Virus record (IMG/VR): IMGVR_UViG_3300037400_001617
DNA: 64,000 nt
Direction: 5' to 3' (one strand)
From: a virus
Taxonomy: Duplodnaviria; Caudoviricetes
The notes under the pieces are model-generated. The model saw only the letters and a program-made list of their open reading frames with translations, was not told the origin of the DNA and did no database searches. The translations under genes were made by a program, and so were the position numbers. Shown here in pieces: positions 10,340 to 64,000 of this stretch (positions within the stretch are counted from its first letter, which is position 1; every line of letters starts with the position of its first letter).

Positions 10340-11323
10340 TTAGAACTTTGATATAGCACCACTATTGATGGTGACGACATCCCAACTCTTACCAAGATTA
10401 CTGTTGGTTGCTCTACCAGTAGAACGATCTATAATCGTTTCGGCGATAAGCTCCTGATTGGGTCTTGGATAGTTTGGAACTGATTGACCAGTGGTTGTGT
10501 CGATTACATCGAATGATGCAGCACCAGTAGAATCGTCAAGTACTACAACCTCTTTGATATTGGGATTGTGCTCAAGTATCATACGATTCTGTTCTGGTGA
10601 TATAGTCTGCATGTAGTTACCATAGCCAGCGTCAACGATATCTCCAGAAGGAGTTATCACTGTACCAGAACCCATCATGCCAGGATTAGCTATAGTGTTC
10701 TGAGATGTCTGCTGCAGGAATGGAGGAAGGTTACCAGTGTTGATAGGAGTATTGATGTATGCATTATACATTGCTGCCATACTTCTATCATCGTCTTCAG
10801 CCATCTGAAGTTCCTTTGTAGCTTGGTAACGCTTCATCTCAAGTTCATGAGACTTAGTTGTTACTGCATTGAGTTCCTTGATGGCAGTAAGCTTGTTTCC
10901 AAGAACACCGCAGATAGATTCGCCGAGATTGCTGATATATGTATATCTGCCTTTCATCTGCTTATTGCTTCTGATAGACTCAAACTCTTTCATGAGTTCG
11001 ATAGCCATGACATCCATCTGCTGAATTGTGCCACGAATCATACCTACACCTTCAGCGTAGGTCATTTCGTAAGGTTCGTTTGATGTACAGAGAGGAGTAT
11101 AAGGCTGTCCCTTAGGATTTTCAACTGGAACTGAAACTGTTTGTGGAACTGGAAGAGCTACTGCACTAGCAGTCTGCTGTTCTTCAGGTTTCTTTTTTGG
11201 AGGACGTCCTCTCTTCTTTTTGCCAGGTTCTGTTGTTGATTGTGACGTTGTACTTGTATTAGCCTCGTCAACTTCAACGTCAATGATTGAATTACCCTGA
11301 TAGGGTTTAACAGATTCAAACAT
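10340..11323 (-). CDS. Hypothetical protein with AT-hook-like motif
   Basis: 327 aa; KKKRGRPPKKK; central coiled coil; SD AAGGAGG; late-type promoter. Confidence 0.75.
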   Translation of the reverse strand: MFESVKPYQGNSIIDVEVDEANTSTTSQSTTEPGKKKRGRPPKKKPEEQQTASAVALPVPQTVSVPVENPKGQPYTPLCTSNEPYEMTYAEGVGMIRGTIQQMDVMAIELMKEFESIRSNKQMKGRYTYISNLGESICGVLGNKLTAIKELNAVTTKSHELEMKRYQATKELQMAEDDDRSMAAMYNAYINTPINTGNLPPFLQQTSQNTIANPGMMGSGTVITPSGDIVDAGYGNYMQTISPEQNRMILEHNPNIKEVVVLDDSTGAASFDVIDTTTGQSVPNYPRPNQELIAETIIDRSTGRATNSNLGKSWDVVTINSGAISKF

Positions 11324-11348
11324 GAATCGTACCTCCTTCGGTTAATTT

Positions 11349-11361
11349 TTATAAGAGTGTT
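11349..11361 (-). promoter_or_regulatory. Late-type promoter AACA-CTCTTA-TAA
   Basis: Motif match upstream of SD. Confidence 0.7.
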
Positions 11362-11372
11362 AGCTGTATCAG

Positions 11373-11385
11373 AACATAATGGTAA
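11373..11385 (+). promoter_or_regulatory. Late-type promoter AACA-TAATGG-TAA with no downstream ORF
   Basis: Perfect motif, divergent from 11349-11361. Confidence 0.6.
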
Positions 11386-11526
11386 GGAAGCATTAAAACG
11401 GGTGGTGTTTCCTTTCATGGTGTCATAGTCCTCCTAACTAATGAATCGGCTATTCATTAGCGACAACAACTGACCTCTCTGGAATGCTGGTAGGGATCTT
11501 CCCTACCAGTCGTTCTTGCGTCTTTT
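11384..11526 (+). ncRNA. Candidate small RNA carrying anti-Shine-Dalgarno motifs
   Basis: Promoter motif, UUUCCUUUCAU and CAUAGUCCUCCU, hairpin CUAAUGAAU/AUUCAUUAG, then terminator-like CUGGUAGGGA/UCCCUACCAG (11487-11509). Confidence 0.5.
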
Positions 11527-11547
11527 GTAGACTATAAAACCCTCTCC

Positions 11548-11592
11548 AACCATTAAATAATCAAAGTAATCGTACGTGTTTGGGACGATTAC
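11548..11592 (+). promoter_or_regulatory. Promoter AACC-ATTAAA-TAA plus leader hairpin of the polymerase gene
   Basis: Motif at 11548-11560; hairpin GTAATCGT/ACGATTAC at 11566-11592 directly before the SD. Confidence 0.55.
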
Positions 11593-11610
11593 GGAAAAGG
11601 AGGAATCACA

Positions 11611-13608
11611 ATGATACAGATAGGAAACTATCCTTTGCAGTACGATTTATCGTTATTGCAGACAATCTACCACAGACCAAAAAGAAACAAGAATACTCAT
11701 ACGGACATCCCAGATTCAATGGACCTTGTTATTAAGGACAATGTGACTGGAGAGAAGTTCGTAGAGACAATAGAAAATCCCGAATACACTTGGTACAGAA
11801 TAAAGAACGACGTGTTCGTTGACTACAATCTCGCTTTCATAGAGAAAGAGAAGTGTGATGCGATCACTGTTCCATACAGAAAACTTCTTAGAAGTATAGC
11901 AGAAGCAACTGGTAATGAGACATTCTTTGATGCTAATGCTGACAATGGAGACTACAAGAACAATCAGAGACTTCACGAGCATGTAAGAGTTATGGGTTCA
12001 GATATGAACATCGAAGACTTCTACAGGTTTCAGTTCGGTGAGTCTTATAAGAATGCCTTTGGTCCTATAAACAAGAGCTATCTCGATATTGAGGTTGACT
12101 CAAGAACTGCGAAGGGAGACTTCGTAGAACCAGGTGAGTGTCCAATCAATGCGGTGACATTCATAGACGATAGAACTCAGACAGTGTTCACCTTACTTCT
12201 TAGGGATCCATATAATCCCTTATGCCTGGAGTTCGAGAAGTTATTGAACAGTGGTAAGTTCGAAGCTATAGCGAGAGACTTTGTTATCAATGCTGTAGGT
12301 GGAATGGAGAAAGCTAAGAAGTATCGTGTAGATACTCTTCAGTTCTCGACAGCTATGTATACTGATGAGAAGGAGTTAATCAAGACCCTGTTCAATGTCA
12401 TTAACAAACTCGAACCAGACTTCTTATTGGCATGGAACATGGCGTTCGATATCCCATACATCATCGAGAGATGTAAGAAGTTAGAGATGAAGCCAGAAAA
12501 GGTAATGTGTCATCCAGACTTCAAGTACAAAGAAGTCAGCTACTTCATAGATGACAAGAACTACAATGAGTTTGCTGAGAGAAATGACTTCTGTAAGATA
12601 AGCAGTAAGACTGTATATCTTGACCAGTTAATTCACTTCGCTAGTAGACGTAAGGGACGTTCAGCAATCCCTAACTTCAGACTTGACAGTATAGCAGAGA
12701 TGACAGTAGGTTTCGGTAAGCTTGACTACCATCACATCTGCGAGAAGCTTGAAGATCTTCCGCAGAAGGATTACTTAACATTCGTGTTATACAATATCAT
12801 GGACGTTATCTCACAGTACTGTATCGAGAACAAGGTGAACGATGTAGGTAATGCATATAACAACGTTCTTCTGAACAACACTCGTATCAGTAAGATATAT
12901 CGTCAGACAGTATATCTGAAGAACAGAGCCTTCAAGTCATACTGGAGACAGGGCTTCGTAATGGGCAACAATACCAACAAGAACAACACCAAGACGAAGT
13001 TCCCAGGTGCTTGGGTATCAGATCCTACAAAGCTCGGACCTTACTCCAAGATGATAGTAAACGGCAAGCCTATCATGGTATTCAGAAATCTGAACGACTA
13101 TGACTACAAGAGCCTTTATCCGTCTATCACATCAGAACTCAATCTTGCGGCTAACACAATCATTGCTCGTATCATTATACCAACTCAGGTATATAAGAAC
13201 GAGAATAGATTTGCGAGAGAGGAATACAAGTACAAGAGAGAAGGACAGTTCCTTGAGGATTATCAGTCTCATCAGTGGCTTGAGTTCTATCATAGGTGGT
13301 TCCACCTTGCGTCATATGAAGAGATGTATGATGATGTAGTAACCTACTTCTCAGATATTGTACATCCAAGAGGTAAACTTGATCTCCATTGTACAGAGGG
13401 TGTATATCTGTTCTACAAAGTGCCCAACAGTAATACTCAAACTTCACCATTCGTTCCGATATGGGAACAGAAGATGATGGACAAGAAGACTGAGTATCCG
13501 CATGTACAGTTCCCATTCGATGACGAAGTCAGAACTTTCTCAGAGTTCTATAATAAGATAGAGTCTAGAGAAGAGAATTGTTATAGTAGAGAGGTAGTAG
13601 CAGTATGA
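11611..13608 (+). CDS. Family B DNA polymerase, N-terminal subunit (3'-5' exonuclease plus motif A only)
   Basis: ExoI YLDIEV, ExoII AWNMAFDIPYI, ExoIII YNIMDV, FPGAWV, motif A DYKSLYPS; no KxxxNSxYG or YGDTDS. Confidence 0.88.
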   Translation: MIQIGNYPLQYDLSLLQTIYHRPKRNKNTHTDIPDSMDLVIKDNVTGEKFVETIENPEYTWYRIKNDVFVDYNLAFIEKEKCDAITVPYRKLLRSIAEATGNETFFDANADNGDYKNNQRLHEHVRVMGSDMNIEDFYRFQFGESYKNAFGPINKSYLDIEVDSRTAKGDFVEPGECPINAVTFIDDRTQTVFTLLLRDPYNPLCLEFEKLLNSGKFEAIARDFVINAVGGMEKAKKYRVDTLQFSTAMYTDEKELIKTLFNVINKLEPDFLLAWNMAFDIPYIIERCKKLEMKPEKVMCHPDFKYKEVSYFIDDKNYNEFAERNDFCKISSKTVYLDQLIHFASRRKGRSAIPNFRLDSIAEMTVGFGKLDYHHICEKLEDLPQKDYLTFVLYNIMDVISQYCIENKVNDVGNAYNNVLLNNTRISKIYRQTVYLKNRAFKSYWRQGFVMGNNTNKNNTKTKFPGAWVSDPTKLGPYSKMIVNGKPIMVFRNLNDYDYKSLYPSITSELNLAANTIIARIIIPTQVYKNENRFAREEYKYKREGQFLEDYQSHQWLEFYHRWFHLASYEEMYDDVVTYFSDIVHPRGKLDLHCTEGVYLFYKVPNSNTQTSPFVPIWEQKMMDKKTEYPHVQFPFDDEVRTFSEFYNKIESREENCYSREVVAV

Positions 13609-21592: not shown

Positions 21593-21627
21593 TTAATAGA
21601 TGGTTTGGCTGTATATTATATATGTGT
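21593..21627. promoter_or_regulatory. Divergent promoters: late-type AACC-ATCTAT-TAA (-, 21593-21605) and early-type TATATTAT (+, 21612-21619)
   Basis: Both motifs visible back to back. Confidence 0.65.
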
Positions 21628-42105: not shown

Positions 42106-42111
42106 ACTATT

Positions 42112-42142
42112 ATAGTATACAGTTGTTTATGATTACTTTTAC
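42112..42142 (-). promoter_or_regulatory. Early-type bipartite promoter GTAAAAGT-N14-GTATACTAT
   Basis: Same architecture at 2176-2206 and 51992-52022. Confidence 0.7.
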
Positions 42143-45763: not shown

Positions 45764-45910
45764 ATGGGAATGTATACCGAAGCAGAGATTTCTGCTACTT
45801 TAAGACACATAGATGACGAGCTGCACAATATCAATCTCAATCTTATAGAGTTGATCAAGGCGGTTCGTTCTATAAATGAAACTAAGAAAGAGGTAAACGC
45901 ACATGAATAA
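45764..45910 (+). CDS. Small coiled-coil protein (48 aa, not in ORF track)
   Basis: MGMYTEAEISATLRHIDDELHNINLNLIELIKAVRSINETKKEVNAHE; SD GAGG. Confidence 0.65.
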   Translation: MGMYTEAEISATLRHIDDELHNINLNLIELIKAVRSINETKKEVNAHE

Positions 45911-48488: not shown

Positions 48489-48606
48489 ATAAAGGCCTCC
48501 TTTCAACCTCAGTCAAATTTGTTATTAGAAGAATGATTATAACTACCTATATAGTATACAGCCCAAAAGCAGTAAGATGACGGGAGCACTTAAGCTCCCG
48601 CCACTC

Positions 48607-52022: not shown

Positions 52023-52086
52023 GATAGCCACTACATATATATAATCAGTGCCTACACGGGCACTTAAAATAAAGGAGGACACACAT

Positions 52087-57458: not shown

Positions 57459-57459
57459 A

Positions 57460-57479
57460 TTATATACTATAGATGAGTC
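57460..57479 (+). promoter_or_regulatory. Early-type promoter TTATATACTATAGATGAGTC
   Basis: 19/20 identical to 10315-10334 (-). Confidence 0.7.
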
Positions 57480-62865: not shown

Positions 62866-64000
62866 ATGTCAGACGAGAACAAAAAGATTACTCTTGATGA
62901 TCTATCTAATGGTGCTAAACACACAGCAGCTATACCGCCACCGTTACCTAGATTAGACTCTAGAACAGTCAGAGATGTCAATATTGCAGAGGTAGCTCAA
63001 AAAGCTCCAGAACCAATGCAAGAAGATATGGTTCCTGGTGTTATCAAGAGCGCCATCAGTAAGATTCCAGCAACAATAGAGAGACTTAACAATGAGTCTC
63101 TTGCTATTGTACAAAAGGGACAAGAAGAAAGAATAGAGCAGATGCTCGACTCAGACGATGATGTCGAGATGCCTACCAATTCATCTACTCCTGCTGCTGT
63201 TCAGACATCAACAAACATTGTAAGACAATCGTTTGATGATGACGGAATAGATTTCGATGACGACGACACAGATGACAGTGATGATGATGTCGATTTTCCT
63301 GTCCCTGTGAAGACATACAATACCAAAGTAGAAAGGAAAGTAAACACTATGGAAAATAACAACACCCCTCAGACAGAACTCGATAAGAAGATTCATGCTA
63401 TTGCAGAAGCTGCAGTAGAAACACCTGAGAAGATTGAGTTTCCTGAGCCTACTGATACAGACAAGGAGAAGCTTGCTGAGAAGGTTCAGGAAGCATATGA
63501 GGCTGTAACAGGTGAAACAATCGGCGAAGAGACTAAGGAGGATGAGTCTACTACTGATGTGGAAGAGGAAGATGCTCCTGTTTTACCTCCGACAATTCCT
63601 TCATCCTCAGAAACAGACTTCGGTACTACTACATTCGCTATGTCAGATGACGATCTTGCTCTTCTTGATGATGAAGACATGATTGTTGAGAAGTCTGATA
63701 AGGCTAAAGAAGTCAGCGAAGCTGAAGAGAAGGAGAGACGTAACGCTCTCAGAGACTCTATCAGAATCTCTGTTAAGGAGAACTTCAAGCCTATCGATAA
63801 TAAGGTTGATCTTTCTAAGTTCGAGATTCAGAAGAAGCCTATATCTGCTTCTAAGGTGCTCAACCATATCAAGGAGACTCCTGTAAGAACGGCTACTACA
63901 CCTCTCTTCTCTACTTCTAAGAAGGTAATCGAAGTATCAGAGTTTACTGCTACAGAAATTCAGAAGCTCAACCCTGCTCTCATCAACCAGAATAACTTCT
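62866..64000 (+). CDS. Acidic low-complexity hypothetical protein, truncated by the window edge
   Basis: Open frame from MSDENKKITLDDLS after GGGAGG to the end of the window. Confidence 0.75.
   Translation, partial: MSDENKKITLDDLSNGAKHTAAIPPPLPRLDSRTVRDVNIAEVAQKAPEPMQEDMVPGVIKSAISKIPATIERLNNESLAIVQKGQEERIEQMLDSDDDVEMPTNSSTPAAVQTSTNIVRQSFDDDGIDFDDDDTDDSDDDVDFPVPVKTYNTKVERKVNTMENNNTPQTELDKKIHAIAEAAVETPEKIEFPEPTDTDKEKLAEKVQEAYEAVTGETIGEETKEDESTTDVEEEDAPVLPPTIPSSSETDFGTTTFAMSDDDLALLDDEDMIVEKSDKAKEVSEAEEKERRNALRDSIRISVKENFKPIDNKVDLSKFEIQKKPISASKVLNHIKETPVRTATTPLFSTSKKVIEVSEFTATEIQKLNPALINQNNF

Follow-up and report, generated by a model that had tools for sequence, protein, structure and literature searches.

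What is transcribed from a phage late promoter that points into an interval without any SD-led open reading frame? The question is raised by positions 11373-11526 of the 64-kb stretch of DNA analysed here (hereafter the window), part of the genome of a jumbo phage that resembles AR9, is uncultured and lives in the rumen or gut; the sequencing runs that contain the region are bovine and other animal gut metagenomes. The interval sits in a 287-nt divergent spacer between a gene for a 327-aa protein on the minus strand, with its ATG at 11323, and a plus-strand ORF of 665 codons (11611-13608) that codes for the N-terminal half of a family B DNA polymerase (PolB), with the exonuclease and motif A. 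Among cultured phages, this PolB is closest to those of the Bacillus phages AR9 and PBS1, with which it shares 31% identity. A megablast search of the region against the phage GenBank records of INPHARED gave no nucleotide match. Similarly, a cmscan search of 10800-12100 against Rfam at E <= 10 returned no family, the single chance match, to a snoRNA, lying outside the unit described below.

The divergent neighbour is itself a late gene (10343-11323, minus strand). Its product has an AT-hook-like stretch, KKKRGRPPKKK, in the N-terminal part, shows 32% identity to the copy of a distant clade, and had no match in searches of Pfam and PHROG. At one related locus (L046/L047:952-1215), an 87-aa protein with a match to Tad8 (PF25189) replaces it opposite the promoter of interest.

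The original prediction placed a late promoter at the head of the interval, and the motif is there: AACATAATGGTA occupies 11373-11384 on the plus strand. It conforms to the late consensus of AR9, AACA-N6-T(A/G), in which transcription begins at the last base (PMC5312081), with A11384 as the predicted start. The same motif recurs before genes of the phage. The window has 10 intergenic, correctly oriented AACA-N6-TA sites, and eight of them lie 32-83 nt before a start codon, usually directly after a terminator. Among the 14 orthologous loci discussed below, AACA and TA are invariant and N6 is variable. The 327-aa gene has a late motif of its own, AACACTCTTATA, at 11350-11361 on the minus strand, 38 nt before its ATG. 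The two late motifs of the spacer thus stand back to back, the plus-strand one 238 nt from PolB. This arrangement is also kept in L038, L039, L040, L044, L046, L019, L025 and L027, and in loci with the unit the plus-strand AACA-N6-TA is found 12-37 nt from the minus-strand late motif.

The predicted unit spans ~130-140 nt of the plus strand, from 11384 to about 11520, and the RNA starting at A11384 folds with z = -3.9. It begins with a 5'-terminal hairpin of 12 bp (11384-11414) formed by AAGGAAGCAUUA and UGGUGUUUCCUU, whose three G.U pairs become A.C mismatches on the minus strand. The next segment, UCAUGGUGUCAUAGUCCUCCUAA (11415-11437), is unpaired in the centroid fold and carries two anti-AUG triplets and the anti-SD sequence CCUCC. 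Hairpin 2 follows (11438-11460; 9 bp, loop CGGCU), then a spacer (11461-11486) with a conserved CCUCUCU box (11474-11480) directly 5' of the terminator. The unit ends with an intrinsic-terminator-like stem-loop and U-rich tail (11487-11527), in which a GC-rich stem of 10 bp (11487-11509) precedes UCGUUCUUGCGUCUUUUG. Both the 9-bp hairpin after the CU-rich part and the closing 10-bp hairpin are therefore as originally described.

The description of the 5' part required correction. It had been taken to be unpaired, with two free anti-SD blocks, but the first of them, GGUGUUUCCUU, is not available because it forms the 3' arm of the 12-bp hairpin with the 5' end of the RNA, AAGGAAGCAUUA; only UCAUGGUGUCAUAGUCCUCCUAA is exposed. 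From its sequence, the UCAUGGUGUCAUAGUCCUCCUAA segment is the likely seed of the RNA. The CCUCUCU sequence constitutes a third CU-rich box, which had escaped notice. A 35-nt motif at 11401-11435, covering the end of the 5' hairpin and most of the exposed segment, occurs as a single copy in the window.

We looked for coding potential in the unit. In agreement with the earlier description, the plus strand has no SD-led ORF, the only candidate being ATG GTG TCA TAG, and neither strand has a conserved ORF. It might nevertheless be argued that the anti-SD motifs are the complements of real ribosome-binding sites, those of a minus-strand mini-gene or, if the 327-aa gene had a long 5' leader, of an upstream ORF within it. 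The minus strand does read AGGAGGACU-AUG-ACA-CCA-UGA, the SD-AUG spacing of this mini-ORF is a canonical 7-8 nt in L039, L040 and L041, and 11306-11414 is spanned by a contig from the metatranscriptome of a relative. However, the window clade has a spacing of only 3-4 nt, and the mini-ORF has 2 codons in L039, 3 in the window and in L038, 13 in L041 and 16 in L040, its products in the different lineages being MTP*, MTP*, MT* and peptides of 13 and 16 aa. We conclude that it is not coding because both its length and its SD-AUG spacing (3-8 nt) vary between lineages. Moreover, no conserved minus-strand promoter precedes it, the terminator and the G.U pairs are specific to the plus strand, and the 327-aa gene has a late promoter of its own at 11361. 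We consider a minus-strand gene to be highly improbable.

The contig just mentioned belongs to a small set of RNA data. Contigs assembled from one metatranscriptome of a relative and from two doubtful 'RNA' runs include parts of the flanking genes and 11306-11414, not 11440-11667. They are uninformative either way because transcript ends, strand and level are invisible in contigs.

We then compared the locus with those of related phages. A scan of metagenomes with a PolB profile gave few loci, and intermediates were obtained from PolB homologues in the protein database and their contigs, namely L038 (82% PolB identity), L039 (75%), L040 (67%), L041 (67%), L046 (59%) and L044 (56%). The IMG/VR database contributed two sister genomes of ~230 kb with 95% PolB identity, G001 (locus L001) and G002 (locus L002), and a wider clade of 185-244-kb contigs with PolB identities of 39-49%, with four distant lineages (L019/L029, L022/L023, L025 and L027). 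A scan of IMG/VR with the pattern CATGGTGTCAT-N6-CCTCC retrieved unrelated genes only; the real spacer is 3 nt.

The same layout is found at 14 loci (11 distinct) of uncultured phages of ~220 kb, at PolB identities from 39 to 95%. The shared order is AACA-N6-TA, 5' hairpin, CU-rich single strand and plus-strand terminator, followed by promoters belonging to PolB itself. A hairpin starts at +1 or +2 in 13 of the 14 loci, with differing sequences, and hairpins of -6 kcal/mol or better arise at random positions of the same loci in 9% of trials. Every orthologue has a strong terminator stem, these stems being unrelated in sequence, oriented to the plus strand and 15-18 bp long in their extended form. 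The 12 nt after the stem are more T-rich on the plus strand in most orthologues. The conserved anatomy and its strandedness can be read directly from the compared loci.

Closer to the window, conservation extends to the sequence. Segment 11415-11437 is 100% identical in L001, L002, L033 and L038, and five sister lineages show no difference over a block of 38 nt (11398-11435 and flanks), amid a mean intergenic identity of 88%. The motif GUCAU...(A/G)UCCUCC is retained in L039, L040 and L041, and GGUGUCAU-N(1-5)-A(G/A)UCCUCC together with CCUCUCU persists down to 67% PolB identity, the CCUCUCU box being present in the window, L001, L002, L033, L038, L039, L040 and L041. Hairpin 2 has undergone changes that keep its pairs (an A-U pair has become U-A in L001, another change of A-U gives G-C in L038, and a G.U pair is G-C in L002), and the terminator loop varies among the sisters. 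When only the five close sequences were used to build a covariance model, it recovered L040 (E = 0.002), L039 and L044 (E = 0.04), each at the expected place and on the expected strand.

The original prediction had called for a look at conservation in related jumbo phages; the layout is conserved at 14 loci, and hairpins show pair-keeping changes. Its proposal of an ORF-less, independent late transcription unit is supported, since promoter, 5' hairpin, terminator and position are kept while the sequence turns over. Because the layout recurs at 14 related loci, we regard the unit as a small-RNA gene without a match in Rfam, and an independent small-RNA gene is much the best reading of the DNA as judged from sequence.

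A promoter-like motif and hairpins could also come together by chance, or the unit might be the decaying inverted duplicate of the 5' end of a gene, in both cases without function. From base composition, AACA-N6-TA is expected about 0.1-0.3 times per strand in a spacer of 287 nt, and the antisense similarity to a 138-aa gene reported below is possibly a relic of duplication. Against this, all the elements are conserved in position over 39-95% PolB identity despite the turnover of sequence, and the 38-nt block has stayed identical in the five sister lineages within less conserved intergenic DNA. A functionless unit is therefore very unlikely.

The unit lies directly upstream of PolB wherever it is present, even where the divergent gene is a different one (L046/L047), and the question arises of whether it acts on PolB in cis. 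As had been proposed earlier, PolB has its own promoter: a proximal promoter region with a leader hairpin (11566-11592) and an SD sequence (11597-11603) occupies 11528-11610 on the plus strand, outside the small-RNA unit. This promoter and leader are duplicated at the second PolB half. In G001, the stretch corresponding to 11547-11617 is found again before the other half (L006), without a small-RNA unit upstream; the duplicated leaders compared were 11547-11613 of the window and L006:1495-1565 (G001:210400-210468).

Both halves of the split PolB are preceded by a promoter-like AACCATTAAATAAT, a hairpin (8 bp, loop of 11 nt) and an SD sequence, and both begin with ATGATAC. This shared layout recalls a translational operator, as for gene 43 of phage T4.

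A role in cis would make the unit a leader, attenuator or insulator of PolB, with the late promoter supplying PolB transcripts through partial read-through of the terminator, or with the terminator shielding the PolB promoters from late divergent transcription, and the RNA would have no function in trans. It would agree with the constant position of the unit and with the situation in AR9, where the DNA polymerase genes have early as well as late promoters and are 'continuously expressed' (PMC5312081). However, the conserved proximal promoter and leader also serve the second PolB half, where there is no unit, and between the terminator and PolB of the distant clades stand an early-like TGTATATTATAAT and another AACA-N6-TA. 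The terminators are strong, with long extended stems, an insulator would not need conserved single-stranded boxes, and the antisense match described below would be left unexplained. We therefore hold a purely cis-acting element to be unlikely.

Two related possibilities were rejected. PolB is not a convincing target of the RNA, as the GUCAU box shows no covariation with the PolB starts (ATGATAC, ATGTTAC, ATGTTAA and ATGGAAG). Origin of the RNA from the PolB 5'UTR by premature termination was discarded because the PolB promoter elements are separate and downstream of the terminator.

If the unit is a small-RNA gene, what does its RNA pair with? The genes at 62866 and 59267 had been named as targets through their RBSs. 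Pairing with both exists and ranks first and second in the window, with bare-seed energies of -26.3 and -23.9 kcal/mol, respectively, but it falls within the control range: for flank-shuffled seeds keeping CCUCC, the best hits in a 208-gene genome have a mean of -25.3 kcal/mol (sd 2.3). When the RNA's own structure is counted, the two genes drop to ranks 4 and 23 of 63. Both were rejected as targets, being no better than the flank-shuffled controls.

Another gene of the window was retained as a candidate secondary target from its sequence. It is a 48-aa ORF at 45764-45910 (plus strand). A helix of 15 uninterrupted pairs is possible between the region of the CCUCUCU box and AGAGAGGUUAGUUGU, the SD and pre-AUG sequence of this ORF, but the match is not significant (P = 0.077). 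The predicted product is coiled-coil-like, the ORF is identical in G002, and at its stop it overlaps with the start region of the following gene.

A stronger match emerged when all the translation initiation regions (TIRs) of the complete sister genome G001 (208 genes) were scanned with its RNA. An ORF of 138 aa (G001:158920-159336, minus strand) came first by three independent measures. By cofolding, its ddG of -23.4 kcal/mol ranks 1/208. By blastn, there is an antisense match of 65 nt with 71% identity exactly at the start of the gene (E = 0.027). By Watson-Crick local alignment, it scores 24, the runner-up scores 19, and none of 300 shuffles reaches 24. The orthologue is also the top match in G002 (P = 0.037 by alignment). 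We relied on alignment statistics because the duplex energies over long windows are over-fitted, many TIRs beating all the shuffles.

The complementarity is extensive. In G001, the duplex between the RNA and the 138-aa mRNA has 44 bp over 60 nt (-55.9 kcal/mol). The SD sequence pairs as GAGG with CCUC and the start codon as ACACCAUGAAG with UUCAUGGUGU, and the duplex also takes in codons 2-7. The loop and 3' arm of hairpin 2 make up a 13-nt perfect antisense match to the leader of the gene. In fact, the body of the RNA (nt 18-101), CCUCUCU box included, is a diverged antisense copy of positions -85 to +20 of the 138-aa gene. The latter has its own AACA-N6-TA at about -310 in both G001 and G002. 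Its leader of ~310 nt (G001:159337-159650, minus strand, L056; near 105330-105650 in G002) is 67-68% purine, contains 5-10 GGAG motifs and lies between two genes of the opposite strand.

The 138-aa gene is the best candidate for a target in the window clade on sequence grounds, the match having been established in the two sisters with 95% PolB identity rather than in the genome of the window itself. Its TIR occurs as variants A, A2, B and C among sister lineages, with the 38-nt block of the RNA invariant. The pair is weaker in G002 (-39.8 vs -55.9 kcal/mol), with no compensatory change. Given the varying TIR and the weaker, uncompensated G002 pair, the RNA may have several targets. Hairpin 2 reads GAAUCGGCUAUUC in the window and GAUUUGGCUGAUC in G001; the presence of GAAUAGCCGAUUC in the target leader of the window's own phage would amount to a compensatory change in trans and would be strong support for pairing.

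An 843-aa gene of G001 gave a seed duplex of -32 kcal/mol (P = 0.005). It has at its start a 21-nt sequence, AAGGAGGACTAGCCACCATGG, which can pair with the seed over 8 + 11 bp and is identical in G001 and G002 (L056:4276-4296, i.e. G001:144276-144296, and L061:4045-4065, minus strand), with differing flanks and products that are 60% identical. This gene was kept only as secondary, as the G002 21-mer is located inside a longer ORF with an SD of its own.

The original prediction of a trans-acting RNA that occludes RBSs can thus be retained in part: its accessible portion is complementary to SD and start regions and has an antisense match in G001, but the targets first named do not hold. Homology of ~100 nt in antisense to the leader and initiation region of one gene is what makes occlusion in trans fitting. 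The phage's AR9-type non-virion RNA polymerase would transcribe the RNA late, and the RNA would end at its own terminator. It would consist of a protective 5' hairpin, UCAUGGUGUCAUAGUCCUCCUAA as the CU-rich seed, hairpin 2 with the CCUCUCU box and the terminator hairpin, and would base-pair in trans with particular phage mRNAs over their Shine-Dalgarno sequence and start codon. The target in this clade would be the 138-aa gene, with its long, purine-rich, late-transcribed leader. Pairing would block binding of the 30S subunit and possibly invite cleavage of the duplex. We infer transcription and stability of the RNA, its pairing in vivo and repression, and we give this reading, a late small RNA blocking initiation in trans by pairing across SD and AUG of particular phage mRNAs, an even chance of being correct. 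A general anti-SD silencer is unlikely because AGGAGG is present in every one of the phage's own late genes, and it is the bases flanking it that provide the evidence for specificity.

The CU-rich character of the RNA also suggests a small RNA with another mode of action, either a decoy or sponge, which might mimic the 3' end of 16S rRNA with CCUCC and CCUUUC and so titrate a protein or nuclease, or a partner or sponge of the GA-rich late leader RNA. All three CU-rich boxes resemble an anti-SD sequence, and the real RNA binds most TIRs better than shuffled versions do (mean of -17.3 vs -14.7 kcal/mol), with many TIRs below the shuffle minimum. The purine-rich, GGAG-studded leader of the putative partner, with its own late promoter, and the invariance of the RNA block in the face of a varying TIR would also suit a decoy or sponge. 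On the other hand, the best match is colinear and spans the SD and AUG of a single gene, as translational control predicts, there is no sign of a protein partner, and the 5' hairpin ties up the first CU box. We judge such a role to be quite unlikely.

Pairing in trans was also explored in the distant clades, with each genome's own RNA compared with its own TIRs. The top-ranked TIR is that of the same 203/204-aa orthologue in G004 (1/219) and G006 (1/217), and in G007 the first place goes to the adjacent gene of the ligase-polymerase operon to which this orthologue belongs. The orthologue of G005 reaches only rank 7/176. Cognate RNA-TIR combinations pair better than cross-lineage ones. G004 and G005 differ by a single compensatory change in trans, with TIR ACAAAAAU facing RNA AUUUUUGU in one and AGAAAAAU facing AUUUUUCU in the other. 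The best hybridization energies genome-wide are within the range of shuffled RNAs in G006 (P = 0.25) and G007 (P = 0.68), and strict alignment puts a different gene first in G004. The RNA of the window clade does not favour the replication operon (ranks 192 and 76), and the putative target gene thus differs between clades. Collectively, these sequence comparisons are suggestive of a small-RNA family that works by TIR pairing, with targets differing between clades.

The operon in question (G004:46792-52402, L092:6792-12399; orthologous in G001, G002, G005, G006 and G007) codes for an NAD-dependent DNA ligase, a protein of 203-254 aa, another of 213-230 aa with an acidic C-terminus, and a ~592-aa polymerase-like protein. 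The 203-aa protein has no match in Pfam, PHROG or the ESM Atlas, and its AF2 model, although confident (pLDDT 86), has no clear fold match in the PDB.

Taken further, these data raise the possibility of a 're-writable' antisense cassette, in which promoter, 5' hairpin and terminator are kept and the body is, in each lineage, the antisense of the leader and RBS of another gene. In the window clade, the gene imaged would be that for the 138-aa protein, with its GA-rich late leader; elsewhere, the images would be of genes from the ligase-polymerase replication operon. This idea, drawn from the sequences, is tentative and in our view rather doubtful. If it is true, a jumbo phage with its own transcription also runs an evolvable, RNA-based late translational shut-off.

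Small RNAs of the proposed kind are known from bacteria and prophages. DicF of the Qin prophage and the C-rich-motif RNAs of Firmicutes, RsaE/RoxS, present a single-stranded C/U-rich seed to SD or start regions, have a 3' terminator and act in trans; their targets are mainly host mRNAs, and they are made by the host polymerase. In contrast, the candidate targets here are the phage's own genes, and they are matched over a far greater length (~44 bp in 60 nt), as if by an antisense copy of a leader. The T4 proteins RegA and RegB, which shut off early mRNAs at the RBS or at GGAG, are functional analogues without homology. To our knowledge, regulatory RNAs of lytic phages have barely been described, and the giant phages have yielded a handful of mapped small RNAs, none with a target. 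The present RNAs would form a new family of a known kind, with the syntenic cassette and its lineage-specific antisense body possibly being a new twist. The family has been defined by comparison alone, with a recognizable promoter, a conserved seed and a concrete candidate target, and is spread over a large clade of uncultured AR9 relatives from the rumen and gut.

Short units from promoter to terminator without a coding sequence have been mapped in other jumbo phages. In 201phi2-1 and phiKZ, small RNAs detected by ONT-cappable-seq are intergenic or derive from 5'UTRs through premature termination (PMC11512511). Like the unit of the window, they lie beside a homologous gene and have a conserved secondary structure; they differ in promoter type, host and sequence and come without a proposed target or seed (PMC11512511). 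The window unit is not simply a 5'UTR derivative of that sort, because PolB downstream has separate promoters.

AR9 shares with the phage of the window the grammar of its late promoters (AACA-N6-T(A/G), with initiation at the last base; PMC5312081), and both are jumbo phages with a split PolB and their own multisubunit RNA polymerases. In the sister genome G001, where this gene was looked for rather than in the window, a 743-aa protein resembles the RNA polymerase beta subunit (PF00562; phrog_3295, E = 1e-93). Late promoters of AR9 also drive antisense RNAs (PMC5312081), but those are cis-encoded, whereas the partner proposed here is ~78 kb away. Upstream of the AR9 PolB gene, g132, we found no syntenic unit, only an annotated early promoter and genes of the same strand. 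If the pairing is real, antisense RNA is a further means by which phages equipped with RNA polymerases control when their own genes are translated, and further members could be annotated by a simple recipe, an AACA-N6-TA promoter followed by a 5' hairpin and a terminator with no ORF.

Finally, a second AT-rich motif, TATA(C/T)TATA(G/A)-like, recurs upstream of those window genes that lack the late motif, e.g. at 2195-2210, 21595-21615, 42108-42125, 48555-48575, 52028-52045 and 57459-57475. By analogy with AAATATATATTAT of AR9, it is probably the early promoter type, used by the virion RNA polymerase.
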